Positions 20,719 to 63,002 of a DNA stretch of 64,000 bases are shown piece after piece. The stretch lies in NCBI GenBank assembly GCA_025830695.1, contig GCA_025830695.1_4111.1; one strand, 5' to 3'. Source of the stretch: a phage. The notes beneath the pieces were generated by a model, which made no database searches, was not told where the DNA came from, and was given only the letters and a program-made list of their open reading frames with translations. Within the stretch, counting starts at the first letter, position 1, and each line of letters opens with the position of its first letter. Both the position numbers and the translations under genes were made by a program.

Positions 20719-20721
20719 TAC

Positions 20722-21816
20722 ATGAATTTCATTATTCTGTTAATACCTGCTCTTATCGTTGTATTCGTTATGAAATACATGTACGATAAGCATATCAGTA
20801 CTAAAGAACTATTGATTCATATTGGTTGTTGTCTGGTTGGTGCGGCTCTTGTTCTTGGTATTTCATACGCAATCAACTATAGCCAGCTTTATGATGTTGA
20901 GATTCTGAATGGTCAAGTAACTTCAAAATACAGCCACAAAGAATATTGCACACAATCTAGTTCATGTAAGCACTATACATGGCATGAGAAGTGCCATACG
21001 CGATATGATAGTAAAGGTAAATCACATCGTGAGTGTGAATCATATAAGGTTTTTGATTACTCATATGAAGTTGATTGGTATGTGAAAAGTACAGTAGGTG
21101 AGTTTGAGATTGAACGTGTGAACCGTCAAGGTACAATGACACCACCACGTTGGCAGCAAGTTATGATTGGTGACTATGCCGCCGCAGAGAGTTCATATAT
21201 CAACTATCTATTTGCTGATAAGAACTCATTGTTTAGTCCTGAAGAACTACACAACATGTATGATGAAAAGTATCTTAGTACTATTCCAGAATACCCAAGT
21301 GTAGTTGATTATTACAAAACACATCACGTAATTAACACTACAAATTACAACGTTGATGGTTACGATGAATACCTTCGTAATGAGCTAAAAACGATGGGTG
21401 CACGAAAGCAGGTAAACATCCAAGTACTAGTTTATGATTACAAAGATGTGGATTTTGTTGATGCTACCCTTGCATCGTGGCGTGGTGGTAAGAAGAATGA
21501 TGTTATTATGTTCTTTGGTATTGACAATGATGGTAACGTTGTCAAATTTTACAGTACATCATTTGCACAAGGAATGAAGAATGAAGAGTTACATGCAAAG
21601 ATGCGTATTGATGCATTAAATGAAAAATTAACTCTTGACTTACTAGTTAAAGAAGTACATAATATTGACACACAGTTTGAGAGACTCTCTAATAAAGAGT
21701 TTGAGTACTTGTCAGTAAAAATGGAACCTAGAAAAGATGTTCTTATCGGTGCTTCCATTGTTTTGTTGATTCTGTCTATTTTCATTGGCCTTTATATGAG
21801 GGATAACGATTTATGA
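20722..21816 (+). CDS. membrane protein (N- and C-terminal TM helices)
   Basis: Hydrophobic N-terminus and C-terminus; Cys/His-rich central part. Confidence 0.55.
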   Translation: MNFIILLIPALIVVFVMKYMYDKHISTKELLIHIGCCLVGAALVLGISYAINYSQLYDVEILNGQVTSKYSHKEYCTQSSSCKHYTWHEKCHTRYDSKGKSHRECESYKVFDYSYEVDWYVKSTVGEFEIERVNRQGTMTPPRWQQVMIGDYAAAESSYINYLFADKNSLFSPEELHNMYDEKYLSTIPEYPSVVDYYKTHHVINTTNYNVDGYDEYLRNELKTMGARKQVNIQVLVYDYKDVDFVDATLASWRGGKKNDVIMFFGIDNDGNVVKFYSTSFAQGMKNEELHAKMRIDALNEKLTLDLLVKEVHNIDTQFERLSNKEFEYLSVKMEPRKDVLIGASIVLLILSIFIGLYMRDNDL

Positions 21817-22367
21817 ATGGTAAACTCCTTGCGTTAATTGGTATTTTGGTAGTTATTGTACTAATGGTGTTTGGTTCTATTAGTATGTATGTTGGTGCAC
21901 ATGATCGTGCAGTTGAGTTTGAAGGAAACATTAAAAAGTACTATGATGCATCTGAAAGTCAACTTAGCAATTATACTCTTACTATTCAAGATAAGGTTCA
22001 AGTAGCAGATAAGTACAAAAATGCGTTGAAAGAAACGATTGAGTCATACTTTAAAGGGCGTGAAGGTGTTGACCAGAAGTTTGTAATGTCACAGATTCAA
22101 CAACAGGTTCCAAATCTTGATCCTAAAATTTATCAGGAATTGATGGTGACAATTGAAGCAGGACGTACAAAGTTCAACAATCTTCAGAAAATGAAAATTG
22201 ACCAGTGTACTGATTATGCTAAGTTCCGCAAAGGCTTCTGGAATTCCAAAATTCTTGATTCGAATACGTTTCCAAGTGAAAATATTGAACACCTTTGTAC
22301 AGTAGTATCTGATACACGTACCAAGAAAGCAATGGATACTGGTATTCAAGAATCAATTAAACTATAA
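21813..22367 (+). CDS. N-terminally membrane-anchored protein (weak LemA-like resemblance)
   Basis: N-terminal TM helix then about 160 aa helical domain; ATGA overlap with upstream gene. Confidence 0.5.
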   Translation: MNGKLLALIGILVVIVLMVFGSISMYVGAHDRAVEFEGNIKKYYDASESQLSNYTLTIQDKVQVADKYKNALKETIESYFKGREGVDQKFVMSQIQQQVPNLDPKIYQELMVTIEAGRTKFNNLQKMKIDQCTDYAKFRKGFWNSKILDSNTFPSENIEHLCTVVSDTRTKKAMDTGIQESIKL

Positions 22368-23569: not shown

Positions 23570-23923
23570 ATGCTAATTTATTTGAGTGTTCTTGTTATTT
23601 CATTACTGGTATCATTAGCAGTACTGAAAGCTGTTGCCATCGGTCGTAGTAAAATTGACAGTACTGAAACGAGTTCCGTTCTAGATTTGATTATGGATCA
23701 TCCTAAAGTCTGTGGTATTATTGTATTGTTTGTTATTCTGATTAATACGTATATTGTCAGGGATCATTTATATAATATGTATGATTGTAGTGTTAGATCT
23801 ATATCACAAGGTGTTGAAACTGACTATAGCTGGTACTATGAGAAATGTAGATTTAAAAATCAGCATGGTATTTGGGTTGATTTTGACAAACTACGTGGAA
23901 CTCCTTCAGGAGAAGAAGAATAA
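23570..23923 (+). CDS. small membrane protein
   Basis: Two hydrophobic segments. Confidence 0.5.
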   Translation: MLIYLSVLVISLLVSLAVLKAVAIGRSKIDSTETSSVLDLIMDHPKVCGIIVLFVILINTYIVRDHLYNMYDCSVRSISQGVETDYSWYYEKCRFKNQHGIWVDFDKLRGTPSGEEE

Positions 23924-23925
23924 TT

Positions 23926-24417
23926 ATGTTTGAGTTCCCAGAAGAGTCATTTGACTTTATTGACCCTACTGATGATGGATACCGACACATTAACATTTAT
24001 AGTAAAGCTAGAACTAAGTTAGGTAGAGATCTATCTAACTTTTCTTCACATAGCTTCACACTTGAGCCATATGGTTGGTTCCCTTCAGTTGAAACATTTT
24101 ACTTTTGGTTTTTAACTGGGCAAAAACATGATGACCTTAGAAAAGTATCTGGTGCAGCAGCAAAAGCAGCCGCTAACAAATATATGCATGATCGAATTGA
24201 AATGACGGATGATTGTATTTCTATTATTCAAGATGCTATTTGTGCTAAGATAATTCAAAATCCAGAGTTAGCCGAAAGATTAAGAAAAAGCAAGTTACCT
24301 TTTTACCATTACTATGTATATGGTGGTAAAGTTGTAGATGTATCCGACGAACATGATTGGTTTGTTAAAACATTCGAATATATAAGAACGGTGTTAAAGG
24401 AAAACTATAATGGGTAA
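23926..24417 (+). CDS. hypothetical protein
   Basis: 163-aa ORF. Confidence 0.5.
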   Translation: MFEFPEESFDFIDPTDDGYRHINIYSKARTKLGRDLSNFSSHSFTLEPYGWFPSVETFYFWFLTGQKHDDLRKVSGAAAKAAANKYMHDRIEMTDDCISIIQDAICAKIIQNPELAERLRKSKLPFYHYYVYGGKVVDVSDEHDWFVKTFEYIRTVLKENYNG

Positions 24418-25813: not shown

Positions 25814-26004
25814 GTACTGAACTTTATGAAAAAAAGTACTGTACAAATTGCTCAACTGAGTATACAATACAAGGTATGTTGATTTGTACAATATGTCAGT
25901 CAAAGAAATCAGCAACTTTCATCGTTGATGATAGATTTGGTGATTTGAAACAGTTTAAAGCAAACCGCAATCTTCGTATTTTTAGCAATCTAAATAAGGA
26001 ATAA
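25810..26004 (+). CDS. small Zn-ribbon-like protein
   Basis: CTNC...CTIC cysteine pairs. Confidence 0.45.
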   Translation: MSTELYEKKYCTNCSTEYTIQGMLICTICQSKKSATFIVDDRFGDLKQFKANRNLRIFSNLNKE

Positions 26005-26007
26005 TAT

Positions 26008-26436
26008 ATGAATATCGAACAAACTATCCGTGAACATTCTTTCTTCGCTCCAGAAACTGGTCGTGTTATTGAGAGCGTCAAAATCGAAGAACTAATGGTC
26101 AATGTTAAATACAAAGAACCAAATGATGAGATTAGCAGTACTTTTTGTGCTCTACGTGCACCATTCCGTAATGAAAAAGCTAAGAAACCAGCATATGTTC
26201 TTGCCATTGCACTGGGTTGTGTTGTAAAACTTGCAGTTGATGAAAATCTTCTGAATATTAAAGTTGCACCAAGCAATGACGATGAAAACATTGATTTGAA
26301 CTTTGATGGTTCTCTTGATGAAGATGTATTTTTCCAACAGTCACTTGTTTACGACTTCCGTACAGTGACACATTCTCACATCAAGTTCATTAATGAAATG
26401 GTTGAGATTGTTGCTGAATACGAAGAATCTCTCTAA
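26008..26436 (+). CDS. EExFFQxS-motif family protein (member 1)
   Basis: C-terminal DEDVFFQQSLVYD. Confidence 0.6.
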   Translation: MNIEQTIREHSFFAPETGRVIESVKIEELMVNVKYKEPNDEISSTFCALRAPFRNEKAKKPAYVLAIALGCVVKLAVDENLLNIKVAPSNDDENIDLNFDGSLDEDVFFQQSLVYDFRTVTHSHIKFINEMVEIVAEYEESL

Positions 26437-26445
26437 GTAAATACA

Positions 26446-26470
26446 AAAGCCTCCATTATGGAGGCTTTTA
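26446..26470 (+). terminator. intrinsic terminator
   Basis: AAGCCTCCA-TTA-TGGAGGCTT followed by TTATC. Confidence 0.6.
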
Positions 26471-26489
26471 TCACATAAGGAAATGAAAT

Positions 26490-27041
26490 ATGATAGACCA
26501 AATTAAAATCCTTACAAAGCAAATCACTGATTTTCTTTCTGATAAAGATGGATTTAATACAGAAGTAAAAATGCACGGTGTTAGTGTTGATGTAATTGCA
26601 CCAAATGGTAATGTAACAAGTTACGACATGTATGAATTACTTCTTTATACTCTAGCAGTACGTAAACTAGGTAGTGATATTGAACTCAATATCAATACTG
26701 ATGAAAGTGGGAATAAAATTTTTGCAATCAACACCAGTGCTAAATTCGATATCAGTACTGAAATTAAAAAAATAAATGAAAGTTTTATTGGCTTTAAGCA
26801 TGAATCAATTCAAAGTGTTTTTATTGGAAAGCAAACTTCTAATAGTGAATGCCCATATTGTGTAATGACTTTATATAAAGATGGAAACTGGATGCGTCAA
26901 GATTTAGTATTTGCTGAACTTCTGTATGCATTTACACATGAACTTAAAATCGAATTGGACGATAGTGTTTATTGCTTTAAGAAAATTCGAAATATAACTA
27001 AAGATATACAAACCCAACTTAAAGAATTAAATGATAAATAA
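26490..27041 (+). CDS. hypothetical protein
   Basis: 183-aa ORF, RBS AAGGAAA. Confidence 0.55.
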   Translation: MIDQIKILTKQITDFLSDKDGFNTEVKMHGVSVDVIAPNGNVTSYDMYELLLYTLAVRKLGSDIELNINTDESGNKIFAINTSAKFDISTEIKKINESFIGFKHESIQSVFIGKQTSNSECPYCVMTLYKDGNWMRQDLVFAELLYAFTHELKIELDDSVYCFKKIRNITKDIQTQLKELNDK

Positions 27042-27147
27042 ATATACCAGAAATGGTTAACATATCATGTTACTTTCCTCCCTTACATAATAATGATGCG
27101 TTATTATATTTTCATTTTGTTCTTATTCCCCTTTTGGTACAAAATCA

Positions 27148-27170
27148 TTTTAGTACTGCCCCGATCTTCG
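27148..27170 (+). terminator. intrinsic terminator
   Basis: GCCCCGA-TCT-TCGGGGC followed by ATTTTT. Confidence 0.65.
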
Positions 27171-27201
27171 GGGCATTTTTCTTATCTAAAATTGAGGATA
27201 T

Positions 27202-27597
27202 ATGAAGAACAATATTGGAACTTCAATAATTAAACCACTTTCTTATTACCTTGAAAAATTTAGAAGCACAAATGGTAATAAATTTAATAATATATTTCAG
27301 TTCTCTCATAAAGAATATATTACAATTGATCATTTTTCAAAGAAACTAATGTATGTAAATGATAATAGTCATATTATTAAATTATCATTCGATATTGAGT
27401 TAGATAAATTAACATTTACGGAATACATTAATCAAAAAACTTCTTTTTTATGTCAATACAATAGGAAAGTATATAGTAATATTTCTATGTATCTAAATGA
27501 TGAATATCACTTTCAACAATCTACAATAGAAGAAGTATTGTTCAGTACTGAAGAATTAAAAGAACTATATTACTGGTATAATTATTTCACATCTTGA
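27202..27597 (+). CDS. EExFFQxS-motif family protein (member 2)
   Basis: C-terminal NDEYHFQQSTIEE. Confidence 0.6.
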   Translation: MKNNIGTSIIKPLSYYLEKFRSTNGNKFNNIFQFSHKEYITIDHFSKKLMYVNDNSHIIKLSFDIELDKLTFTEYINQKTSFLCQYNRKVYSNISMYLNDEYHFQQSTIEEVLFSTEELKELYYWYNYFTS

Positions 27598-27652
27598 CAT
27601 TATTGTGGGTTTATCCTACAATACATGATGATGCTGCATTGAGGATAAATTT

Positions 27653-28063
27653 ATGAGTTTAGATTTACACAATGAACTAAAATATTTTTTAGATTTGGAC
27701 ATATCAGAATTGAACCACCACGTCAATCATATGACTAGTACTGTATGGTGGTCTAATGATCAAGACGACCCAATTATCCAACTAAGTGATGAATCGTCAA
27801 TTATGCGATTTTATAAGATTAATTATAAAAAGAACATCAAGATCACATATGTACCATACAAAAACATACTACTAGTCGAAACACTTAATCCAAGTTCTTT
27901 ATTAAAAATCACAGATTTAGATACATTACAAACAAGTGAATCTTTATTCCAACGTTCATTAGTTGATGATCTTGGTGGTATTACTTTTGAAGATATATTA
28001 CAATTGAAGAATATGTATAGTGAATTGTTGGAGATTAAAAACACTTTAGTAATGGGGAATTGA
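27653..28063 (+). CDS. EExFFQxS-motif family protein (member 3)
   Basis: C-terminal SESLFQRSLVDDLGGITFED. Confidence 0.6.
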   Translation: MSLDLHNELKYFLDLDISELNHHVNHMTSTVWWSNDQDDPIIQLSDESSIMRFYKINYKKNIKITYVPYKNILLVETLNPSSLLKITDLDTLQTSESLFQRSLVDDLGGITFEDILQLKNMYSELLEIKNTLVMGN

Positions 28064-28064
28064 T

Positions 28065-28469
28065 ATGGTAAGTTTACTAGATATTGATAATACCAGTTTA
28101 GTGCTGGTGAAAAAAGGTTTAATTCCCAATTCTACAAAAATTGATTATGCTGTTATTGAAACAAATATTGGAAATATCTGGTACGACTCTGAAAGGGATA
28201 TTGTGTTTAGCTGTGTAGACAGTGATCGATCTGAATGTTGTAGAGTCGGTCATGACGGACAATTTGTTTTTGAATTTCGTTATTGGAAGGACGCAAAATT
28301 TCACCAAGAACTGGTTGCTTTGTCAAATGAACTATATACAGAAGAATCGTTCTTCATGGCTAGTACTATTAATGATTTTGGTTCAGTTACATTTGAGTAC
28401 TATAAAAAGATATACGCACTATCCAGAGAAGTTATGAAAATTATCAGAACTGCTGAAGGTAAAGAATAA
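28065..28469 (+). CDS. EExFFQxS-motif family protein (member 4)
   Basis: C-terminal TEESFFMASTINDFGSVTFE. Confidence 0.6.
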   Translation: MVSLLDIDNTSLVLVKKGLIPNSTKIDYAVIETNIGNIWYDSERDIVFSCVDSDRSECCRVGHDGQFVFEFRYWKDAKFHQELVALSNELYTEESFFMASTINDFGSVTFEYYKKIYALSREVMKIIRTAEGKE

Positions 28470-28470
28470 C

Positions 28471-28848
28471 ATGACTACTATATATGATATTTTGGGTGTT
28501 CTGAGTAGAAATATAGATGATGATTTTGTTATTGTTCAAGATACTAGAAATACATTTCAACTACCAATAGGTTCACCAGATAGGTTAATTTTTAATAGAT
28601 ACTCAAATGAACTAACTTACATCCATGATGGGATTGCAATTGTATCAGTTTCTATAAACGACTATACAATACGATATGTATATGACTTCAACGATTATTG
28701 TACAAGAATCCACAGTATTGATATTTCCGAAGAGGAACTATTCCAATTGTCATTGATTGAGAAAAATGTAATAGGAATTACAGAAATTGGTATTATTAAA
28801 AAAGCATTAAACTATACAAATATAAGAATTAATGGTGGGTGCAGATGA
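28471..28848 (+). CDS. EExFFQxS-motif family protein (member 5)
   Basis: C-terminal SEEELFQLSLIE. Confidence 0.6.
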   Translation: MTTIYDILGVLSRNIDDDFVIVQDTRNTFQLPIGSPDRLIFNRYSNELTYIHDGIAIVSVSINDYTIRYVYDFNDYCTRIHSIDISEEELFQLSLIEKNVIGITEIGIIKKALNYTNIRINGGCR

Positions 28849-29300
28849 ATGTTGACGAAATAAAAAATCATTTTGAAATTGCAATGTCATGTGAATTTGA
28901 CACACAACGTGTTCATGACCCGAAAGAACATATACGCATTTGTTGTGAATTGTCAGATGATTGTAATATTTTTATTGGAAAAACCTATGACATGATCGAT
29001 CTTTCATGTATAGATCCATTGGAAAGAAAAACAAAATATTTATATCTGTACAACACAACATCAGATACGATTGCAATACAACTAATATCAACCACAACAT
29101 CCCAAAGTTATTATAACATAACTGAGGTTAGTAGTTTAACGTTAACCGAAGAAGGATTCTTTCAACAATCGCTTATTCGTGAAATTGGTGTTAGTTATGA
29201 TGAGTTAAATGTATTAGTAGATTGTTTCGAAAAATTGAGTACTTTTGTATTATCCCTTTTTAATATACAGTCGCAAAATCCAATGGTGGTGAAATGCTAA
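28839..29300 (+). CDS. EExFFQxS-motif family protein (member 6)
   Basis: C-terminal TEEGFFQQSLIREIGVSYDE. Confidence 0.6.
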   Translation: MQMNVDEIKNHFEIAMSCEFDTQRVHDPKEHIRICCELSDDCNIFIGKTYDMIDLSCIDPLERKTKYLYLYNTTSDTIAIQLISTTTSQSYYNITEVSSLTLTEEGFFQQSLIREIGVSYDELNVLVDCFEKLSTFVLSLFNIQSQNPMVVKC

Positions 29301-29734
29301 ATCCAAGTAAATTTCTCCACTTACTTTCGATAACATCAATACCGGATCTTACCAGTGAAACTAATGAATATCGTGAAGCTGGGGTGGTGTCTATGGAACT
29401 CGATACATTTGACCACAAATGCTATGTGACATATGACCCACCGCGTTATGGTAAAGAACATTCTTCTTTTATTTTTGTATTCGTATACACTGTATATGAT
29501 AATACAACACTTGATGATGTTTGTATTGACACTTACGAAATTTGTGATAATATCATAACTGATGACAACAATAACTCATTTGATATGTCACTATATAACA
29601 CAGAAGAATCGTTGTTTCAACTTAGTACTGTTATTGATGCACCATCATTAGAAGATATAAAACAATTTCAAGAACATCTTGACGCAGTTCGTGAGATGTT
29701 CTATAATCATTATCCAGAAGTAGAGTTCAATTAA
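29294..29734 (+). CDS. EExFFQxS-motif family protein (member 7)
   Basis: C-terminal TEESLFQLSTVID. Confidence 0.6.
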   Translation: MLNPSKFLHLLSITSIPDLTSETNEYREAGVVSMELDTFDHKCYVTYDPPRYGKEHSSFIFVFVYTVYDNTTLDDVCIDTYEICDNIITDDNNNSFDMSLYNTEESLFQLSTVIDAPSLEDIKQFQEHLDAVREMFYNHYPEVEFN

Positions 29735-31776: not shown

Positions 31777-32292
31777 ATGCCAATTCCTTATGTTAAAATT
31801 ATTAATAATATTCTCGATTCATGGGAAGATGTTATTACTGGTAAAAAGAAACCATCACCAGTACATGCTTTATCTGGGAAACTTCAATTCAGAATGTCAA
31901 ACCAAACTGAAACATTTAATAATCATGATATTTGCATTACATTAAAAACACCTGTTAGTATTGTAATTAAAAAAAATAAAGATGATGAATTGACATTATC
32001 TATTGGTCGTGATAAAATCATTTTAAGTAATTTGTCTGAAGAAGAATTCTTTCAAAGAAGTACTATTATCGATATGAAAGATTTCACATATGAATCATTG
32101 GTTGAACTCAATACACGTTTTAACGATATTCAGGAACGATTGCGACCAATTCTTCGTATCGAAGAAGAAGCCTGGATTGAAAGTATTAGGAAGATGCAAG
32201 AAATGTTGAAAGAAAATATTAACAATCTGGGTAAAGCTACAATGGAATTTGGTAAAACTTTTAAACTGAACTTTTCAAAGGATCGTAAATGA
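31777..32292 (+). CDS. EExFFQxS-motif family protein (member 8)
   Basis: SEEEFFQRSTIID; start trimmed to ATG 31777 downstream of terminator. Confidence 0.55.
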   Translation: MPIPYVKIINNILDSWEDVITGKKKPSPVHALSGKLQFRMSNQTETFNNHDICITLKTPVSIVIKKNKDDELTLSIGRDKIILSNLSEEEFFQRSTIIDMKDFTYESLVELNTRFNDIQERLRPILRIEEEAWIESIRKMQEMLKENINNLGKATMEFGKTFKLNFSKDRK

Positions 32293-32744
32293 AAATTGAT
32301 AATTTGATTCATGTTTTAGGATCTTTACATAAAATATTATCACATCTACATGAGATAAAGAAACTGGGATTTAACATCTCAAATTCAATTGAAACTACAT
32401 TTAAATATCAATCAATTACTGGTGATGGTTATTACATAATCGAATATACTTATGAAACCGATCCAGACTTCTATCCTCTTACGTTGAGAATTTATCCAAC
32501 AAATCCGAGAGGAATTCACGACATATCATCAATTTCACTTGATCCAGATGGTGAAACGAGTATTGAATACAATAATGATTCAAAACCAGAATTTTACATT
32601 GATGATATTAAAATGATGTTCAACGATGAATATGTTTTCCAACAAAGTACTGTGCATGATGTTGGAAGTACTAATGGACAATTTTGGAATACATGTTATT
32701 ATCATATGATTGAAATTTGTAAATTACTAAAAGGTGATGAATAA
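32289..32744 (+). CDS. EExFFQxS-motif family protein (member 9)
   Basis: NDEYVFQQSTVHD. Confidence 0.6.
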   Translation: MKIDNLIHVLGSLHKILSHLHEIKKLGFNISNSIETTFKYQSITGDGYYIIEYTYETDPDFYPLTLRIYPTNPRGIHDISSISLDPDGETSIEYNNDSKPEFYIDDIKMMFNDEYVFQQSTVHDVGSTNGQFWNTCYYHMIEICKLLKGDE

Positions 32745-33127
32745 TGAAATACTGCATTGAAGTACATTACACTACAGGGGACACTGAAACTGAAGATTCA
32801 GTTACCAATACATTGGATGTTCAATGGGAATCAAAGGATGAGGCAGTTGTAGCATTACAGTCTTTGAAAGAGCATTGGGTATTCTTTAAGAAACTCGATG
32901 ATGCATATAGTAACGAACGTGCTACAATAATCGATGAAGCCAAACATAAAGAATGGTTTGATCCAATGTCATGTGAATTCTCTTTCTTTGTAAAAATTGG
33001 AGATGAAAAAATCCCAGTACGTACACCGTGGAACGGCTACTTTGAAACTCTTCATAATGCACGAGTTGTCGCTGTTGATAATCCTGAACAAATCGATTTC
33101 GATTCATTGGACTGGAAAAAACTATGA
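32744..33127 (+). CDS. hypothetical protein
   Basis: 127-aa ORF, overlapping start/stop. Confidence 0.5.
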   Translation: MKYCIEVHYTTGDTETEDSVTNTLDVQWESKDEAVVALQSLKEHWVFFKKLDDAYSNERATIIDEAKHKEWFDPMSCEFSFFVKIGDEKIPVRTPWNGYFETLHNARVVAVDNPEQIDFDSLDWKKL

Positions 33128-33567
33128 CAGTACTGCACCAATTGAAGAAGGTTAAGCATCCAGTTGTATATGAGGACTGGAAACGTCAGAAGCTGATGGG
33201 TGATTTTTATTTCCCAAAATCTAAAGTACTAGCAACGTCAAAAGCTATATACTTGAAATATAAGGATGAAGATTGTTTGTGTATTCAAATGGGATTCCAT
33301 CCTAAAGTTGGTTTGTTTACAACAAATCAAACATTTTATAAATTTAGAATTCAAAAAGATACATTTAGTATTCATATCGAAAAACATGATGTACAAGATA
33401 CAATTTATCGTGTGGAAAGTGAGCCTTTGAATCTTGTTGAGATCCCGTACAATAATTTAGAAGAAATGTACTTTCAGCAGTTGACAATACAAGAAGACTT
33501 TGGTATGATAGGACTTCAAGAGTTAGAGATGATTAAACAAATTCGTGATATCTACTTTAAGGAGTAA
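33124..33567 (+). CDS. EExFFQxS-motif family protein (member 10, divergent)
   Basis: LEEMYFQQLTIQEDFG. Confidence 0.55.
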   Translation: MTVLHQLKKVKHPVVYEDWKRQKLMGDFYFPKSKVLATSKAIYLKYKDEDCLCIQMGFHPKVGLFTTNQTFYKFRIQKDTFSIHIEKHDVQDTIYRVESEPLNLVEIPYNNLEEMYFQQLTIQEDFGMIGLQELEMIKQIRDIYFKE

Positions 33568-36244: not shown

Positions 36245-36533
36245 ACATGAAGTAATTCATTTTGATGATAAGATCTATATTCCAAATATTGATAGTACTG
36301 AAACATATTACCTAATCAATAAGATTATGGCTGAAACAAATACGTGTTGTCGTCAACAGCCAGGAAAATATGAGTTCAGTCAGACTATTGGTTATTACCG
36401 ATATGATATGTTAGAATCATTTACAATTGATAAGTCTAAAGTTATTGACATTCTTGTACAGAATGGATATAATGAACAACGTGTAAATGATACAGATTTA
36501 CCAGTTTCAAAAATTGTTCTTTCTAATAATTAA
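36237..36533 (+). CDS. hypothetical protein
   Basis: ORF-track ORF trimmed to ATG 36237. Confidence 0.45.
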   Translation: MNKHEVIHFDDKIYIPNIDSTETYYLINKIMAETNTCCRQQPGKYEFSQTIGYYRYDMLESFTIDKSKVIDILVQNGYNEQRVNDTDLPVSKIVLSNN

Positions 36534-36536: not shown

Positions 36537-36565
36537 TTGGACAAGAACAGATATTGTGATATAAT
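36537..36565 (+). promoter_or_regulatory. sigma70-type promoter with extended -10
   Basis: TTGGAC-N17-TGaTATAATGTTT. Confidence 0.55.
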
Positions 36566-36923: not shown

Positions 36924-37430
36924 ATGAGTGTTGAATATTGGTTTTTATTTGTGTGTATTGGTACACTTGCATTAATCACCATTGGATTGATTTTCAATAC
37001 CATGATTAGTGGAAGTAAGTACTTTAAGACATTCCAACTTTTAATGTCTGCTATGCCATATAGTGCTGATGCCGAAAAAACAATTTCTCTAATTTTAGAT
37101 AAGTTCGATGCAAATCTTTTGGTGGCTAAAATTTCAGCATGTGATACAAATATTTCATTCTACTCGGTAGACACGGATCTAGATGGAATTGATACACAAT
37201 ACTCAAATCCAGTAGTTGCTGAAATTTTCATTGGTTCAAAATATTATGCATATGGATATGTAAGAAAATATTATTCAGAAGCAAAAGCTGAGTTGACGAA
37301 GAAGCGACCATCAATAAAAACTTTAAAACGCATCATTGCGTTGGAAAAATCACTTCGTGGTCAAACAAGCGTTAATGAGCCACCATCAGTGATTAAATCC
37401 AAAAAAAGTAATGTTGTGGAGTTGGAGTAA
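36924..37430 (+). CDS. membrane-anchored protein
   Basis: N-terminal TM helix; RBS AAGAGGA. Confidence 0.5.
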   Translation: MSVEYWFLFVCIGTLALITIGLIFNTMISGSKYFKTFQLLMSAMPYSADAEKTISLILDKFDANLLVAKISACDTNISFYSVDTDLDGIDTQYSNPVVAEIFIGSKYYAYGYVRKYYSEAKAELTKKRPSIKTLKRIIALEKSLRGQTSVNEPPSVIKSKKSNVVELE

Positions 37431-37720
37431 TGGAACCAGAAAAATCAAGAAAAATTCTTATTGATGTCCAAACTAAATTACTAGATATTATGGAAATCAT
37501 CAATGAGTTACCACAGGGTTATCAGTACAAAGTTCGTGAAATGTTATCTTGTGCCGAAACCGTTGTTTCTATGTACGATGATATTCAACATGGTATTATC
37601 CCTGATATTCTCAAAGATGACGTAAATATTAACACTGAGGTAAAAGAAACTAAATTAGAATCAGAAACAGTATCTAATAAAAAAGTTCTAGACCTTAGTG
37701 GTATAAAAATTAATATCTAA
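37430..37720 (+). CDS. hypothetical protein
   Basis: 96-aa ORF, overlapping start/stop. Confidence 0.5.
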   Translation: MEPEKSRKILIDVQTKLLDIMEIINELPQGYQYKVREMLSCAETVVSMYDDIQHGIIPDILKDDVNINTEVKETKLESETVSNKKVLDLSGIKINI

Positions 37721-37742
37721 AAAACATCCAATAGGAGAAGTA

Positions 37743-37892
37743 ATGAGTAATCAAAAAATCGACTTAGTAGTAAAACTTCAAGAGATTCAAGCACTAGCTA
37801 AAGACCTTGATAACACACGTGCATCAGTAGTTGATTCACTATGTGCAACAATCCTGACTGTTTTTACAGATTACGAAAAGAAATCTGATTAA
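37743..37892 (+). CDS. small hypothetical protein (49 aa)
   Basis: Not in ORF track; RBS AGGAGAAG before ATG; followed by terminator. Confidence 0.4.
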   Translation: MSNQKIDLVVKLQEIQALAKDLDNTRASVVDSLCATILTVFTDYEKKSD

Positions 37893-37905
37893 ACGTTACT
37901 TTGTA

Positions 37906-37937
37906 AATACCCAGTCAAGTACTGGGTATTTTTTTAA
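37906..37937 (+). terminator. intrinsic terminator
   Basis: AATACCCAGT-CAAGT-ACTGGGTATT followed by TTTTTT. Confidence 0.7.
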
Positions 37938-37946
37938 GGAAATAAA

Positions 37947-38339
37947 ATGACTGAATCAGAACTACACGAAATGATAGATTTCATTTATGAAATGGTACAA
38001 GATAAAAATAACATCAATACAATTGCATCAGGCCCAAGACAAATTGGTAACCAAATAACATATTCTTTGTCCTTATGGTTACACCCGTGCATTAAGGTTG
38101 ATTGTTTGTATTTCCGTCCTGATATTGATGCTTATTATTTTGTCAATCATGATGCATTAATGAAACCACATAATCGTCCAGTTGATGATACCTTTGTGAC
38201 ACACCCATTTTACCTGGCTGATTCCGAAGAAGATGAGTTTCAAAAGAACACAACGTTAAGCCCAGGTGAAATTTGCATCCCTTACGTACTTAAAGATAAA
38301 ATGAATCACATCACAGAAGTTATGAAAACATGCTGGTAG
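37947..38339 (+). CDS. EExFFQxS-motif family protein (member 11, EEDEFQK subtype)
   Basis: SEEDEFQKNTT. Confidence 0.5.
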   Translation: MTESELHEMIDFIYEMVQDKNNINTIASGPRQIGNQITYSLSLWLHPCIKVDCLYFRPDIDAYYFVNHDALMKPHNRPVDDTFVTHPFYLADSEEDEFQKNTTLSPGEICIPYVLKDKMNHITEVMKTCW

Positions 38340-38387
38340 ATGCAATGAAACTCTGATATAATACAAATAATGATAATAGGAGGATAT

Positions 38388-38606
38388 ATGAAATTTATTG
38401 ATTTTGATATTTCTAAGGCCAAAGAATTATTTGTAAGAAATGAAGTTTATGATATCATGTTACATAACGGCACTGTACAAGAAGATGTTGTGTTGTTTTC
38501 GTTTGATGGTGAAAATCTCGAAACTATATATAAATTCAGCAACTTAGATGGTGACTTTTGGGAAACCAGTGCTGTTAAAATGTATAGAATTAAAAAGGAG
38601 CATTAA
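38388..38606 (+). CDS. hypothetical protein
   Basis: Trimmed to ATG after AGGAGGA. Confidence 0.5.
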   Translation: MKFIDFDISKAKELFVRNEVYDIMLHNGTVQEDVVLFSFDGENLETIYKFSNLDGDFWETSAVKMYRIKKEH

Positions 38607-38607
38607 C

Positions 38608-39096
38608 ATGCCAATTCGTGGTGTACCAGAACCATTAATGGAAGTTATTAAGCATGTTCGCATTGGAGATCGAGAAGTTAATCTTCGCCGTAATAACATT
38701 TATTACTTTAAAACTTCAGAAATGAGTTCTGTACAGATTGTCATTGGTACATCTATTAAGATTACTCGTGTACTTGATGGTAGTACTGACTTCGTTGAAT
38801 ATAATGTACTTACTAATAAAGTAACGCATATATATAAATGGAGTGGGTATAAAACTATTAAGTATGAATTTGACTTAGCTAGAACTGAAGAAGAACGATT
38901 TATGCTGAGTACTATCAATCCAGCAAACTATCCCGATCTTGATGCATTTTTGCTAATTTTAAAATTGTATAATGAAGCAAATCAGAAAGCTAAAGAGTAT
39001 GATAGAATCATGTATGAACGCCGAAAAGAACGTGCACAAAAAAGTTATGATCTGTATGATAGCCCATACGTGAAATATAGTAAGGGGTCGAAATGA
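38608..39096 (+). CDS. EExFFQxS-motif family protein (member 12)
   Basis: TEEERFMLSTINP; start at ATG after AAGGAG. Confidence 0.55.
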   Translation: MPIRGVPEPLMEVIKHVRIGDREVNLRRNNIYYFKTSEMSSVQIVIGTSIKITRVLDGSTDFVEYNVLTNKVTHIYKWSGYKTIKYEFDLARTEEERFMLSTINPANYPDLDAFLLILKLYNEANQKAKEYDRIMYERRKERAQKSYDLYDSPYVKYSKGSK

Positions 39097-39497
39097 ATAA
39101 AGAAGTTCAAATTATCATAACTCCACCTATACAAAGTCTGGATGTATCCATTAGTGATTTTTTGGAAAAATACTATGAATGGTTTAATGAAGATTCAGTA
39201 ATTTATAACCATTCATTACCAGATGGTTTCGTGGAGCTTATCGAATTAAATTCAAAATCACTATACTTCTGTGTTGAATACAATGATTATATGACAGATG
39301 AAGCTTATCGCTTTCGTTGTACATTGTATCCGAATTATTTTTCAATAGGTTATAAAGATTACCAGTACTGTACCACTAACTATAGTGTTGAGGAAGAATT
39401 TCAGTACAATTTACTTTATCCTGATTTAGATTATACGATTGCAGTACTGTTGACTAAAATCATGGATTTTTATAAAGATAAATATAATGCAGCCTAA
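39093..39497 (+). CDS. EExFFQxS-motif family protein (member 13, divergent)
   Basis: VEEEFQYNLLYPD. Confidence 0.5.
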   Translation: MNKEVQIIITPPIQSLDVSISDFLEKYYEWFNEDSVIYNHSLPDGFVELIELNSKSLYFCVEYNDYMTDEAYRFRCTLYPNYFSIGYKDYQYCTTNYSVEEEFQYNLLYPDLDYTIAVLLTKIMDFYKDKYNAA

Positions 39498-39672
39498 GAC
39501 ATTTGATGAGTGGTTTAATCTACACTATAATATAAATGCAGCAGATATATACTATTTTAAGCTTGAATTGTATATATCATTGCGTAACCCAATTGAGTAC
39601 TATAACAACATTATCAATTGTGATGATTTTGGTACATATTTTAGTATAGCCGTTATGGATATTAAGAGATGA
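39487..39672 (+). CDS. hypothetical protein
   Basis: 61-aa ORF. Confidence 0.4.
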   Translation: MQPKTFDEWFNLHYNINAADIYYFKLELYISLRNPIEYYNNIINCDDFGTYFSIAVMDIKR

Positions 39673-39848
39673 CACATGAAGAATGGATGGCAATGATGAA
39701 AAAACGTTATGACCAGTTTGGAAATGGATTTATTGATGGTCATTTCGATATTTTACGAGACAAATATAAGTTCGAATCATATGTACTAGATGAGAATGGA
39801 AATCGTTGGTTCATCTATGAGCTTGCGGTTAGAGACAAAAAAATATAA
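39669..39848 (+). CDS. MTHEEW-family small protein (member 1)
   Basis: Not in ORF track; ATGA overlap; MTHEEWMAMMKKRYDQFGNGFIDGHFDILRD... Confidence 0.5.
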   Translation: MTHEEWMAMMKKRYDQFGNGFIDGHFDILRDKYKFESYVLDENGNRWFIYELAVRDKKI

Positions 39849-39865
39849 TAACCTTTTCCATTGTC

Positions 39866-39926
39866 CATTGCAATGCTTTCTTTACAGAAGAATAAATGAA
39901 ACACTTAATTGAACTGGATACATAAA
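39866..39926 (+). pseudogene. decayed remnant of the 3' end of a paralog of gene 40229-40444
   Basis: Near-identical DNA to 40386-40444 but with an in-frame stop. Confidence 0.4.
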
Positions 39927-40103
39927 ATGACACATGAAGAATGGATAGAGTCACTAAAATATAAACATGATCATTTTGGATTTGGTATACGCCAAGGCCA
40001 TTATGATGTTTTGAACGATAAAAAAACGTTCGAATCATTGGTTTTGGACGAAGATTCCAACCACTGGTTCATCTACGAGCTTGCTATTAGAGATAAAAAA
40101 TAG
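39927..40103 (+). CDS. MTHEEW-family small protein (member 2)
   Basis: MTHEEWIESLKYKHDHFGFGIRQGHYDVLND... Confidence 0.55.
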   Translation: MTHEEWIESLKYKHDHFGFGIRQGHYDVLNDKKTFESLVLDEDSNHWFIYELAIRDKK

Positions 40104-40108
40104 TAAGA

Positions 40109-40444
<336 letters not shown>

Positions 40445-40445
40445 A

Positions 40446-40628
40446 ATGACACACGAAGAATGGATGTCCAAACAGCATAAAGAACATGACTGCTTTGGGA
40501 ATGGCATTCGTCAGGTACATTATGATATATTAAGAGATGAAAATCTTTTCAGGTCATATGTTTTGGATACCAGAAAACCCTGGTTTATATGCGAACTGGC
40601 ATTTAGAAAGTCAAATAATCAAAACTAA
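40446..40628 (+). CDS. MTHEEW-family small protein (member 3)
   Basis: MTHEEWMSKQHKEHDCFGNGIRQVHYDILRD... Confidence 0.55.
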   Translation: MTHEEWMSKQHKEHDCFGNGIRQVHYDILRDENLFRSYVLDTRKPWFICELAFRKSNNQN

Positions 40629-40644
40629 ACAAGGAATACAAAAA

Positions 40645-40863
40645 ATGGAAACAACTTTATTTGAAGTTATTCAATCATTAAAACCTGAAGATGAGGTTCA
40701 AGTACTACTACATGGTTATCGTGTAAAAGGTACTGTGGTTTTAGTCAATGATACAACATTGGTTATTACAGAAACAAACCCATATGATAGTAATCAACTT
40801 GCCAATATCCATATCGATATCACTGGAATTATTGGTGTCGGTGTATCTAAAACACTTGCATAA
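40645..40863 (+). CDS. hypothetical protein
   Basis: Trimmed to ATG after AAGGAA. Confidence 0.5.
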   Translation: METTLFEVIQSLKPEDEVQVLLHGYRVKGTVVLVNDTTLVITETNPYDSNQLANIHIDITGIIGVGVSKTLA

Positions 40864-40916
40864 ATCATTAATTCATTATATAATGATTATCACTGGTTCT
40901 AGATGAGGATAATATT

Positions 40917-41189
40917 ATGCATTTTGAAAAATTCAACGTAAATCGTAACACACGCATTGAAGTTCTTTATGAAACTCAAGACACCATTAGTATTCGTACA
41001 AGTAGTGGGGATGTATATCATGACTGTACGATTGGCTGGGAACAGGGAAGGACGCGTAGTGCAGTATTTGATAATTATCGCTTTTATCAAGGAGACACTA
41101 CGATTTGGCCTGAATACGTAGAAGATATTGCGTTTGAAGATGAACATAAAGATGAATTTATCAAATTTAATCCTCAAACTGAATCATAA
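40917..41189 (+). CDS. hypothetical protein
   Basis: 90-aa ORF, RBS GAGGA. Confidence 0.5.
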   Translation: MHFEKFNVNRNTRIEVLYETQDTISIRTSSGDVYHDCTIGWEQGRTRSAVFDNYRFYQGDTTIWPEYVEDIAFEDEHKDEFIKFNPQTES

Positions 41190-41193
41190 ATAA

Positions 41194-41323
<130 letters not shown>

Positions 41324-41326
41324 AAT

Positions 41327-41427
<101 letters not shown>

Positions 41428-41429
41428 CA

Positions 41430-41590
<161 letters not shown>

Positions 41591-41594
<4 letters not shown>

Positions 41595-41751
41595 CACATG
41601 AAGAATGGATGAATGACATTAATTTTAGATATTCGGGTATCGGTAAATGGCTAAAGTATCATTGGGAATTCATTTCAGAGCCACATCTGTATGATAAACT
41701 TATCAACGATCCAGCATATGAAATGTACTTAATTGAACTACTGGTACGATT

Positions 41752-41755
<4 letters not shown>
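41591..41755 (+). CDS. MTHEEW-family small protein (member 5)
   Basis: 54 aa, about 80 percent DNA identity to member 4; ATGA overlap. Confidence 0.5.
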
Positions 41756-41917
<162 letters not shown>

Positions 41918-41925
41918 AAAAAAAG

Positions 41926-42335
<410 letters not shown>

Positions 42336-42339
<4 letters not shown>

Positions 42340-42371
42340 CTAAATAATTCAGTACTGAGGATATTAATATG
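42336..42371 (+). promoter_or_regulatory. degenerate copy of the promoter cassette
   Basis: TTGACTAAATAATTCAGTACTGA then a poor -10. Confidence 0.3.
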
Positions 42372-42396
42372 TTTAAAGATGAACGTCCAGATTTGT

Positions 42397-42444
<48 letters not shown>

Positions 42445-42449
42445 ATCAG

Positions 42450-42782
42450 ACGTATATGGTGTAAGTTACGTCGATGCAATCCAGAACAAGATCTCTGGTA
42501 CTCTAGGAAGTGGTGAATGTTAACCTAGACGGGTTTGATAATTGGACGATAGGCAATTATTACTTGACTAGCAGGTTTAAACTAGAGGTGACTATCCTTC
42601 ACCAAACTGGAAAACCGGATGGACTTTTATTTAAAAGGGTAAGGCGTGGAAATATGTTTACAGAAGTTGCTTTTAGTAGCCTGTACGCCCCACGTCAAGG
42701 TAGCCGAAAGGCAAGTTAAGACGGGTGGTTATAAAGCTGAATTAACAGCGGCGTTTAAAAGCGTCACCATCCATTTTTTTTT
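42450..42782 (+). ncRNA. candidate structured non-coding RNA
   Basis: About 330 nt without a credible ORF, visibly GC-richer than flanks, promoter upstream and T9 run at 3' end. Confidence 0.3.
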
Positions 42783-42798
42783 AATTAAAGTTGGTGAT

Positions 42799-43608
<810 letters not shown>

Positions 43609-45628: not shown

Positions 45629-46054
45629 ATGAAATACAACATTGTTAAAATGGTGAACTATATATTAAAAAACAACGCATGGTCACTGCATGATGTACAA
45701 TTAGAAGATATTGGTGAAGTTAGAGTATTTTGCTATGATCCAGATTTGAATCAAACCACAGATTTGAGTAAATGTTTTAATATTTTTCTTGGTTATGAAT
45801 TCAATAATCATTTTTATTCATTTGATGTGTATTTTGAAAAAGTTATATTCAGAAGTTATGAATGTGATAATGAAGATTATGATTATGATGATGAATCAAT
45901 TGAATTGAATGTTAACGATATTGATACTGAAGAAAAATTCTTCCAGTACTGCCTCCTTAACGACACATTAGGATTAACATTTGAGGACATTAAAGCTATA
46001 CTTAAAGTTCAAAAGTTGATTCCAGAAGAGGTTCTAAATCCATTAAATGACTAG
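45629..46054 (+). CDS. EExFFQxS-motif family protein (member 16)
   Basis: TEEKFFQYCLLNDTLGLTFED. Confidence 0.55.
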   Translation: MKYNIVKMVNYILKNNAWSLHDVQLEDIGEVRVFCYDPDLNQTTDLSKCFNIFLGYEFNNHFYSFDVYFEKVIFRSYECDNEDYDYDDESIELNVNDIDTEEKFFQYCLLNDTLGLTFEDIKAILKVQKLIPEEVLNPLND

Positions 46055-46412
46055 TCTAATAGTACGTATAATGCAAGATGTTTGTAATAACCTTTATACA
46101 GGCAATTTTGACGATCCGAACATAAAAATATTATGTTATGATGGTTTTACAATGGTACATCCATCCTATTCAAATAATATCTACGTAGCATATACAGGTG
46201 AAAATCTATTATATCAATTTGATATATATAGTACAATGACAAAGATAATTTTGGATGCCTCTAAACCAGCAATCTTTATTGCTTCTCATGATTACCATTA
46301 CACTGAAGAATCACTATTTCAGTACTCAATGATTAATGACATTGGTGGGTTGACATTGGATGAGGTTAATGCTATACTAGCTGTCTCACGTTTGGTTAAA
46401 ACCCACAATTAG
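46047..46412 (+). CDS. EExFFQxS-motif family protein (member 17)
   Basis: TEESLFQYSMINDIGGLTLDE. Confidence 0.6.
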   Translation: MTSLIVRIMQDVCNNLYTGNFDDPNIKILCYDGFTMVHPSYSNNIYVAYTGENLLYQFDIYSTMTKIILDASKPAIFIASHDYHYTEESLFQYSMINDIGGLTLDEVNAILAVSRLVKTHN

Positions 46413-47122: not shown

Positions 47123-47551
47123 GTGAATGCAATGAGTTATTTGTTTACTTTAATTGATAAGTATGTTGACATTGTATACCGTCAAGTTTGTAGTGATACG
47201 TTTGAAACAAAAAACCCAATTAGAGATGGCATTTTTGATGTTGTCGTTGGATCATTTTTGAATGGATACACCGAGACATTATACAACAGTAATAATATTT
47301 TTATTTCAGTTCAATCCAGACATACATCAGACTATGCTGTTAGCATTGATATTTGGGAAAATAATATAGAAATAGATATAACGGAACATACTAACATTCA
47401 TGTTGATGATACATTTAATCAATTAACTGAAGAAATGTACTTGCAGTTGAATTTTGTACATGATCTTACAAATATCAGTTATGATACATTAAGGAAAATA
47501 TGTTTTCTTAGTGGGGCGATCCGTAGTAATATGAGTAAGGATGGGAAGTGA
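47123..47551 (+). CDS. EExFFQxS-motif family protein (member 18, divergent)
   Basis: TEEMYLQLNFVHD. Confidence 0.5.
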   Translation: MNAMSYLFTLIDKYVDIVYRQVCSDTFETKNPIRDGIFDVVVGSFLNGYTETLYNSNNIFISVQSRHTSDYAVSIDIWENNIEIDITEHTNIHVDDTFNQLTEEMYLQLNFVHDLTNISYDTLRKICFLSGAIRSNMSKDGK

Positions 47552-47552
47552 A

Positions 47553-47969
47553 ATGTTAAAAATTCCACCTAAGTCGTTAACACATCTTATTGAATGTGGT
47601 GTAATATTTTCCGAAGGTGATACCTCATCATACACATTGGTCGATGAACCTTATAATTTTTCATACCAATCTTATAAAAATAATTCTAAAATTTCTTGTA
47701 GAGATGCTGAAAACATATTAATAGATGTTTCGTTACATAATGTTCCGAAATTTTACATTGATATCTTTGGTGATTCTTTGACAATTCGAACATATGATTA
47801 TTTTATTAATAACGACCTCTTGAGTCTTCCAATTGAACATGATACTATAGATTCAGAGATGTTCTTTCAACTATCAACAGTTTACGATTTACAGGGTTTA
47901 ACTGTTGAGCAGTTGAATGGAATATTTGAGATTTCACGAAACATACGAAGCAGGAATAAAAATGTCTAA
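47553..47969 (+). CDS. EExFFQxS-motif family protein (member 19)
   Basis: DSEMFFQLSTVYDLQGLTVEQ. Confidence 0.55.
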   Translation: MLKIPPKSLTHLIECGVIFSEGDTSSYTLVDEPYNFSYQSYKNNSKISCRDAENILIDVSLHNVPKFYIDIFGDSLTIRTYDYFINNDLLSLPIEHDTIDSEMFFQLSTVYDLQGLTVEQLNGIFEISRNIRSRNKNV

Positions 47970-48378
47970 TATTTTAAATGAAAAAACAGTTGATGTTGTT
48001 ATTGGTGTTCTTAACACCGCAACTTCATTTCAGAAGAAACACAGTACTGTATACTTCGGTGACGATTGTTGGCTGAACTATACATCTGATAATTCGTTTA
48101 TAATTCGTGTTGAGAAGGGTGATATTGGATTAACGATACATGCTTCCCACACTAAAACTGATAAGAAAATCACTGTTATTGCAAACAAGCCAAGTGTCTC
48201 AGATTTCTGGGATAGAATTGATGATTGCGACCATTTCATGTCAACATTCTATAAAACAGAAGAAGAACATTTCATGGATAGTACGGTCAAAGAATTAGCT
48301 ATTCCATTTAAACTTATGAAAGCAGTAAGAGATTTTATTTTAAAATACAAAAAAATAGGAGTTACTAATGCAATTTAA
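47962..48378 (+). CDS. EExFFQxS-motif family protein (member 20)
   Basis: TEEEHFMDSTVKE; start trimmed to ATG after AGGAA. Confidence 0.5.
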   Translation: MSNILNEKTVDVVIGVLNTATSFQKKHSTVYFGDDCWLNYTSDNSFIIRVEKGDIGLTIHASHTKTDKKITVIANKPSVSDFWDRIDDCDHFMSTFYKTEEEHFMDSTVKELAIPFKLMKAVRDFILKYKKIGVTNAI

Positions 48379-62283: not shown

Positions 62284-62484
62284 ATGTTTACTTTATATCT
62301 TGCAGTAGTACTAACTAATGGTGAAATCACTCGCACCGTTGGTGAAGGTGTATATAAAACACCTGAGCAGTGTTACTCTGCAACTCATTGGCCTCGTGAT
62401 GCTGGTGATGAATCTCGCACTGAATACAAATGTATGAAGGTTAAAGGTGATTTTGTAAATCTAAAGGTTATTGAGACTAAGTAA
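62284..62484 (+). CDS. hypothetical protein
   Basis: 66-aa ORF, RBS AAGGA. Confidence 0.5.
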   Translation: MFTLYLAVVLTNGEITRTVGEGVYKTPEQCYSATHWPRDAGDESRTEYKCMKVKGDFVNLKVIETK

Positions 62485-63002
62485 TGGATATTAATGAGTT
62501 GTTGAAATTAGTGTTTAATCGTGAACGCCGCGATACAAGACCAATTGAATATCAAGATGTGATACGCATTGAAACTGATTTCTGTTATGGTAAAACAACT
62601 CATGACCTTTTGAATCTCTCTGGAAAACGCTATGCTGATGTTTGTTTTTCAGAGAGAAGTGATGGTTCAGAAATAACGAGTACTGATATTGTTTGTTACG
62701 CACGCAGTGCTGATAAATCTTATGAAATAGAACTTATATATTCCCCTAGTTCTAAAACAAATCATCACCGCCATATTTTATATGATGTTTACACACCACC
62801 TGGTATTGCTGAATATTTTGTTATTGATTATAGTACTGAAGAAAATGTGTTTCAACAAAGTTTGATTCATAACTTTGAGGTGAATGATCCATTAGTACCA
62901 AAGTTGTTCAAACTACTTGACACCATAGATGTTGATTTTGAATTTGTTATGTGCATTAGAACTTCTTTATTCAATGAATTCATGGAACTTTTTAATATAT
63001 GA
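62484..63002 (+). CDS. EExFFQxS-motif family protein (member 21)
   Basis: TEENVFQQSLIHN. Confidence 0.55.
   Translation: MDINELLKLVFNRERRDTRPIEYQDVIRIETDFCYGKTTHDLLNLSGKRYADVCFSERSDGSEITSTDIVCYARSADKSYEIELIYSPSSKTNHHRHILYDVYTPPGIAEYFVIDYSTEENVFQQSLIHNFEVNDPLVPKLFKLLDTIDVDFEFVMCIRTSLFNEFMELFNI

Follow-up and report, generated by a model that had tools for sequence, protein, structure and literature searches.

The stretch analysed here, a window of 64,000 nucleotides (nt) from a phage (contig GCA_025830695.1_4111.1 of assembly GCA_025830695.1), carries on its + strand, at positions 37947-39497, three small genes that we name by their first nucleotides, 37947, 38608 and 39093. An earlier note on this DNA had described them as a second block of members of a small-protein family, each with a variant of the family motif, and all three open reading frames (ORFs) are present on the + strand with the peptides that it quoted. 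They look like expressed genes, as shown by their ribosome-binding sites, their tight packing against or coupling to neighbours and their conservation in about 35 related genomes. The start of 39093 overlaps the preceding stop by 4 nt. For 38608 the mechanical ORF begins at 38548, but an AAGGAG Shine-Dalgarno sequence precedes 38608 and none is found at the upstream ATG at 38548. We take the starts at 38608 and, in a further member, at 42799 as real because the profiles of the PHROG families begin there (the match of phrog_22160 starts at residue 21 of the long ORF of 38608) and the PBECO4 annotation agrees. The strong + strand promoters nearest upstream of the block are two near-consensus sigma-70 sites at 36445-36473 (12/12) and 36538-36565 (11/12).

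The region 37000-43500 shares 97-98% DNA identity with Asteriusvirus jumbo coliphages (BAU.Micro_ELP-22, PBECO4, SP27) and 94% with 121Q; by this measure the source of the window is an Asteriusvirus (PBECO4/121Q-like) jumbo phage of E. coli. Its G+C content is ~33%, and the + strand carries nearly all genes.

A many-copy family with one motif

We delimited the family with an iterated hidden Markov model (HMM), seeded with ten motif-bearing ORFs and run over all + strand ORFs of the window. It converges on 21 ORFs at E≤1e-16, the next ORF lying at E=0.15, and so reproduces exactly the count of 21 given earlier; none of the other ORFs of the window (80-260 amino acids (aa)) exceeded 20% hhalign probability. 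Since a model built from the members is bound to fit them, leave-one-out tests were run as well. With the resulting small 20-member profiles 18 of the 21 were recovered at E≤6.5e-5 (38608 at 3.7e-6), the weakest values being those of 42799 (0.004), 37947 (0.013) and 39093 (0.43). A broader profile of 145 sequences, from which the tested orthogroup was left out, gave E values of 2e-6 for 42799, 0.0019 for 37947 and 4.9e-5 for 39093, with the best non-member at 0.22-0.24; in hhalign, 39093 reached a probability of 28%. On these scores all three genes of the block belong to the family, 38608 as a solid member and 37947 and 39093 as peripheral ones, and the description of the block as a second group of members was correct. 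Within the 21, the members of the block are the most divergent.

Members are 117-172 aa long and their N-termini are not conserved. What they have in common is the motif [ST]-E-E-x-h-F-Q-x-S-[TL]-[VIL], about 35-45 residues before the C-terminus, which is present in all three genes of the block with deviations (S-E-E-D-E-F-Q-K-N-T-T in 37947, T-E-E-E-R-F-M-L-S-T-I in 38608 and S-V-E-E-E-F-Q-Y-N-L-L in 39093). Among 162 representatives that otherwise share ~7-17% identity, the motif region keeps its Glu-Glu, Phe, Gln and Ser at 88-99%. The acidity of the family is a second common trait: 76% of its members have an isoelectric point (pI) below 5, vs 28% of the other ORFs. Unlike most members, 38608 is basic because of a C-terminal extension rich in Lys, Arg and Glu; extensions of this kind, reaching ~35-50 aa beyond the last helix (e.g. 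KAKEYDRIMYERRKERAQKSYDLYDSPYVKYSKGSK), occur in 38608-39096 and in 31777-32292.

An exhaustive profile search of 1.84 billion protein cluster representatives returned 153 representatives of 50%-identity clusters at E≤1e-3, all with the same C-terminal motif pattern, and revealed a breadth of which a word-indexed homolog search had shown only the close orthologs. A tblastn search with the 40-aa consensus of the motif region matched 71 of 50,697 phage records, all of them jumbo phages, with hosts in Escherichia, Klebsiella, Salmonella, Erwinia, Yersinia, Pectobacterium, Serratia, Cronobacter and Xanthomonas. RNA-seq data exist for PA5oct, but this query matched no Pseudomonas phage. In the homologous 34-40 kb of PBECO4, JNE01, A4 and EJP2 the family HMM detects 20-23 members; for Klebsiella phage RaK2 the count is 12 (in 40 kb) and for a metagenomic contig 17 (in 20 kb). 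These searches place the family in RaK2-like jumbo phages (about 310-390 kb) and nowhere else; in this part of the genome such phages have ~12-23 copies per 40 kb. We are highly confident, on sequence grounds, of both the identity of the phage and the family as such.

Each member of the window matches a PHROG at E values from 1e-57 to 1e-118 (among them phrog_32367, 22160, 33143, 38341, 34619, 17453, 24510, 24941 and 23322); an exception is 47541, which matches phrog_17453 best, at 1.9e-11. With these matches the genes already have entries as hypothetical phage proteins. A search of PDB sequences with the family profile yielded nothing significant, and PADLOC gave no match at E≤0.1 for ten members. 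One of 145 family representatives matched Pfam PF21220 (RecQ-1-like_HTH, E 3.7e-12); a re-scan of the 20 longest or most extended members did not recover it, and the candidate was dropped, the match possibly lying within the family domain itself. A paper describing an EExxFQxS family was not found in the literature.

The EEDEFQK type

The EEDEFQK variant of 37947 recurs in 42799, as the earlier note had stated. When the profiles of 21 orthogroups were compared with one another, those of 37947 and 42799 were reciprocal best partners (score 40, probability 89%, 34 columns), the next partner of each scoring 27. The signature [SD][ED][AE]DEFQK is retained by all orthologs of both groups (9 and 7), down to 41% and 61% identity; all these orthologs come from Asteriusvirus phages that infect E. 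coli or Salmonella. In the 162 other representatives the position ahead of the invariant Phe holds F, Y, L, H, V, R, A or M, in no case an acidic residue, while Asp two positions ahead of this Phe and Lys two positions past it, after the Gln, occur in 3.7% each. As read from the sequences, 37947 and 42799 also share a turn [IF]-P-[YH]-x-L past the motif. Recent gene conversion as the origin of the shared EEDEFQK was rejected because the two genes differ synonymously in three of the seven codons of the motif.

The phylogeny is less clear-cut. In neighbour-joining trees with 500 bootstraps, the C-terminal columns, whose phylogeny had been put forward as the check on subfamily structure, unite 37947 and 42799 at 43%, all columns at 47% and the N-terminal columns at 8%, so that strongly supported monophyly is not found. 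The tree is star-like, with no bipartition reaching 70%, and at full length other pairs, e.g. 45629/46047, are more alike than 37947/42799, for which a direct BLASTP aligns 15 residues. These values, together with the mere 34 columns of the profile-profile alignment, would suit a reading without any real sub-family, in which EEDEFQK arose by convergence or through a short ancient conversion tract in a star-like family and 37947 and 42799 are not sisters. We find this reading rather doubtful, as the reciprocal profile match lies well above the next partners, the two proteins have three rare states in common, one of which is absent from the 162 other representatives, and both the signature in all orthologs and the turn past the motif are shared.

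The gene 39093 (S-V-E-E-E-F-Q) has the same unusual Glu and forms a trio with 37947 and 42799 in 38% of the bootstraps on C-terminal columns; its orthogroup is without a partner in the profile-profile comparison. Judged from its motif, 39093 probably belongs to the EEDEFQK type together with the other two.

The order of the orthogroups is common to Asteriusvirus and RaK2, and since they stay syntenic at 28-48% identity, the paralogs are old. As to the proposal of at least two subfamilies, the part concerning the signature stands, given the reciprocal best profiles and the retention in orthologs, whereas the division in two does not: what the sequences show is a star of about 20 orthogroups, old and syntenic, and not a simple split into two subfamilies. 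Within this star the EEDEFQK sub-type is real as an old signature, shared and derived, but it does not form a well-resolved clade.

Predicted fold and possible function

The typical member 28065, modelled by AlphaFold with a 149-sequence alignment (pLDDT 87.5, pTM 0.80), begins with a short N-terminal helix, continues with seven strands in succession (13-18, 28-32, 37-41, 45-52, 55-63, 67-75 and 78-86) and ends in two C-terminal helices (93-102, which bears the motif, and 110-130). The model of a RaK2 paralog superposes on it with a TM score of 0.83, and that of 37947 shows longer N-terminal helices, 5-6 strands, a disordered stretch at 70-82 and the same two C-terminal helices. The family is thus probably, as far as these models go, a single domain made of an N-terminal helix, a seven-strand hairpin meander and two C-terminal helices. 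The C-terminal module of which the earlier note spoke is not separable as a unit, since the motif starts the first C-terminal helix of this one predicted domain. A Foldseek search against viral models returned only uncharacterised family members (RaK2, GAP32, PBECO4, UB).

We take the pattern h-[ST]-E-E-x-[FYL]-F to fit the capping box and hydrophobic staple of a helix. In the predicted fold, h-[ST]-E-E-x-[FYL]-F-Q-x-S-[TL]-[VIL] would form the capping box, the staple and the buried face of the first C-terminal helix; because of these roles it would be the keystone of the fold, with sheet and loops differing between paralogs. In the EEDEFQK type the staple residue would be changed to Glu, re-modelling one face of the helix, and in 37947 and 42799 this staple-position Glu would be paired with a Lys three residues further on. 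The order of secondary-structure elements in the 28065 model matches that published for p32 (PMC8924301): in p32/gC1qBP/MAM33, and by prediction in the family as well, an N-terminal helix is followed by seven consecutive antiparallel strands and then by two helices at the C-terminus, and both are acidic. The p32 proteins themselves form a homotrimeric doughnut. Significant structural or sequence similarity to p32/gC1qBP/MAM33 was not found.

As for the time of expression, the window holds 31 near-consensus sigma-70 promoters (≥11/12) on the + strand, 11 of them perfect, and 2 on the - strand, where 3.1±1.7 per strand are expected; the T4-late-type motif TATAAATA occurs on the + strand only once, at 9445. 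The enrichment is limited to near-perfect sites and strongly strand-biased, the overall count of promoter-like sites from a consensus scanner showing none (66 vs 77 expected). Such promoters give the entire 64 kb the look of an early region transcribed by the RNA polymerase of the host. The corresponding stretch of phage CBB, with its short ORFs and RpoD promoters, is presumed to be early (PMC5259590). The virion mass-spectrometry table of phAPEC6, a close relative, contains no family member: its listing goes from gp078c to gp149c, and the family genes are gp083c-gp134c.

Family genes diverge faster than neighbouring genes: their median identity is 43% vs 73% in A4 (p=0.02), 39% vs 57% in JNE01 (p=0.01) and 30% vs 47% in RaK2 (p=0.008), a comparison in which some best matches may be paralogs, not orthologs, and which to that extent counts among the reservations set out below. 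Altogether, sequence comparison shows a clade-specific, many-copy, fast-evolving and mostly acidic family of small proteins in a region with early-type promoters. We tentatively propose that these are cytoplasmic early proteins binding host or phage macromolecules, with each old paralog having its own target, for host takeover or counter-defence. This functional part is a suggestion, and the explanation as a whole, from the identity of the phage through family and fold to function, we place somewhat short of an even chance.

Several points weigh against this proposal. Scans of up to 145 members with Pfam, NCBIfam and PADLOC gave no family-level match, and the 20 members scanned against PHROGs fall into 18 different families, all without assigned function and joined only by weak cross-hits. 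Promoter consensus is the sole ground for the early expression ascribed to the family, and no transcriptome for the RaK2-like clade was found in the literature. Absence from one virion proteome is compatible with packaged proteins of low abundance, and the 37947 model is of moderate confidence (pLDDT 76.6). Finally, the conservation of both Glu (~95%) and of Gln and Ser (~90%) is tighter than helix capping alone usually demands and may instead point to a shared functional site.

The family could be a hitherto unrecognised superfamily (at least 153 clusters at 50% identity, with about 20 or more copies in this region per RaK2-like genome) that acts as a combinatorial arsenal of early acidic p32-like binders, the old paralogs each neutralising another host factor or another defence system and the EEDEFQK type, as a re-modelled variant, being aimed at a distinct class of target. 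Taken jointly, this is a speculative and rather unlikely combination.

The tight conservation of the polar positions, beyond the normal needs of a purely structural cap and extending with Phe over Glu-Glu, Gln and Ser in the 162 representatives, would also be accounted for if the invariant E-E...F-Q-x-S helix were a shared docking or active site for one common partner, for instance a subunit of the host RNA polymerase, a chaperone, a protease or an enzyme of the phage, to which the variable sheet brings different cargos. We consider such an adaptor unlikely: the pattern matches a textbook capping box and hydrophobic staple, neighbourhood and fusions indicate no partner, ten long members are without an extra Pfam domain, and the EEDEFQK type changes the motif yet is stably retained. 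Acidity and predicted topology further leave open a p32-like decoy or chaperone role, in which the proteins would be p32/MAM33-like alpha-beta7-alpha2 scaffolds that bind basic nucleic-acid-binding proteins (nucleoid proteins, nucleases), or else nucleic-acid mimics; to this we assign a low probability.

The remaining two alternatives are very improbable. The heads of the XRCC4 superfamily are 7-stranded sandwiches that have a helix-turn-helix inserted after strand 4 and lead into a coiled-coil stalk, and SAS-6 resembles the family locally in the helix-turn-helix of its PISA region (SEEDF..FQQGLLVDF, within the segment ISEEDFqslkFQQGLLVDF, vs TEExxFQxSxVxDF in the family). We rejected distant homology to this SAS-6/XRCC4 head domain, under which the family proteins would self-assemble, on topology and lack of significance, and the resemblance is probably due to chance: the match of the family profile to PDB 6z4a_A (human SAS-6 residues 44-104; E 0.24, pairwise hhalign 79.5% over 35 columns) is not significant after database correction and needs a 4-residue gap within the motif, the 28065 model places all seven strands before both helices and finds no SAS-6/XRCC4 chain among its top 60, Pfam SAS-6_N is not matched, and most family members lack a coiled-coil stalk. 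The internal proteins of T4, in turn, are small, variable and packaged, and have in common a capsid-targeting peptide at the N-terminus. By general analogy with these polymorphic T4 loci, multi-copy, fast-evolving small proteins with one short conserved element, encoded near tRNA genes in a distant relative of T4, might be packaged internal proteins or morphogenesis factors; however, the element conserved in the family is a C-terminal, structural core helix and not an N-terminal targeting peptide, the proteins were not found in phAPEC6 virions, none is marked as structural in the PBECO4 RefSeq record, and the promoters of the region are of early type.

Surroundings of the block and meaning of the family

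The coordinates of the three genes, of the other family members in the window and of the neighbouring ORFs are collected in Table 1.

Table 1. Family members and neighbouring open reading frames in the 64,000-nt window
Feature	Position	Strand	Basis or remarks
Family member, EEDEFQK type, 130 aa, pI 4.8	37947..38339	+	SEEDEFQKNTT at 38223-38255; phrog_32367
Clear family member, 162 aa, basic pI 9.2, Lys/Arg-rich C-terminal tail	38608..39096	+	TEEERFMLSTI at 38884-38916; phrog_22160
Most divergent family member, 134 aa, pI 4.2	39093..39497	+	S-VEEEFQYNLL at 39387-39416; phrog_33143
Not a family member; 78-aa ORF between the first two members	38370..38606	+	matches only positions 1-64 of 189-position phrog_34426
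Family member, 117 aa, TEEEYFQMSTV	41986..42339	+	HMM; 11/12 sigma-70 promoter at 41927-41954
Second EEDEFQK-type member, 125 aa	42799..43176	+	DEEDEFQKRTV at 43057-43089; phrog_38341 from residue 52 of long ORF
Family member	26008..26436	+	HMM, leave-one-out
Family member	27202..27597	+	HMM, leave-one-out
Family member	27653..28063	+	HMM; 11/12 promoter at 27594-27622
Typical family member, used for confident structure model	28065..28469	+	HMM; AlphaFold pLDDT 87.5, pTM 0.80
Family member	28471..28848	+	HMM
Family member	28845..29300	+	HMM
Family member	29294..29734	+	HMM
Family member with C-terminal extension	31777..32292	+	HMM
Family member	32289..32744	+	HMM
Family member	33124..33567	+	HMM
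Family member	45629..46054	+	HMM; phrog_17453
Family member, closest paralog of 45629	46047..46412	+	phrog_17453
Family member	47123..47551	+	HMM
Family member	47541..47969	+	HMM; PBECO4 counterpart without RefSeq annotation
Family member	47923..48378	+	HMM
Outlying family member	62484..63002	+	HMM, leave-one-out
MTHEEWM ORFs	39669-39848, 39909-40103, 40428-40628, 41430-41594, 41591-41755, 41752-41916	+	phrog_10970, E 1e-24 to 1e-29

The RaK2 ortholog of 38608 is 30% identical to it. Between 37947 and 38608, the short ORF at 38370-38606 has a full-length counterpart of 189 aa in PBECO4 (gp396, 15388-15957 of the compared segment) and in A4 (A4_138, 20444-21013), while phAPEC6 has the short form; it looks like a truncated form of this gene, and the difference would be a ~350-bp deletion polymorphism.

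Six tRNA genes (Gly-TCC, Ser-TGA, Ser-GCT, Met-CAT, Asn-GTT and Thr-TGT) are scattered among small ORFs between 40131 and 45612. Their set and spacing vary among relatives, JNE01 having Leu, two Met and two Thr and EJP2 having Arg. Interleaved with them is a second paralog family, unrelated to the EExxFQxS family, of six ORFs of 54-66 aa that begin with MTHEEWM; the function of phrog_10970, to which they belong, is not annotated, and its alignment suggests for two of the six a real start 6 codons downstream of that of the mechanical ORF. JNE01 has an insertion beside its tRNA cluster (25857-28501 of the compared segment) with an additional minus-strand gene of 1.7 kb and a gene for an HNH homing endonuclease (annotated 'phage intron'); the window has neither. 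Within the first family array, a gene for a PTH2-type peptidyl-tRNA hydrolase is found in RaK2 (ORF188, 21602-22015 of the compared segment), in A4 (A4_114, 9481-9891) and in the metagenomic contig (5657-6067); the PBECO4 annotation of the corresponding stretch lists none. In PBECO4 (NC_027364), an intact 142-aa counterpart of 47541-47969 (HMM E 2.4e-15) lies unannotated in RefSeq between gp376 and gp375 (23685-24113 of the compared segment), and the annotated start of the 27653 counterpart lies 26 codons too far downstream.

Paralogs make up ~10% of the proteins of RaK2 (PMC3622015), and Bacillus phage G has a zinc-ribbon family of ~35 copies (PMC7824862), likewise a clade-restricted, many-copy family of small proteins in a giant phage, but with another fold and motif and in another phage clade; neither paper names the EExxFQxS family. 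It is an undescribed case of a kind of gene expansion familiar from phages.

Most genes of RaK2-like jumbo phages are without known function, 83% according to the phAPEC6 paper. In the window, about 20 small "hypothetical" genes of the early region are brought together as one clade-restricted family with one predicted fold and one keystone motif, which reduces many unknowns to a single testable question and provides a scaffold, old orthogroups and, in the EEDEFQK type, a defined variant for comparison. If its members do act as inhibitors of host factors or defence systems, the family would open up a large new set of such proteins; otherwise it would represent an ordinary lineage-specific expansion.

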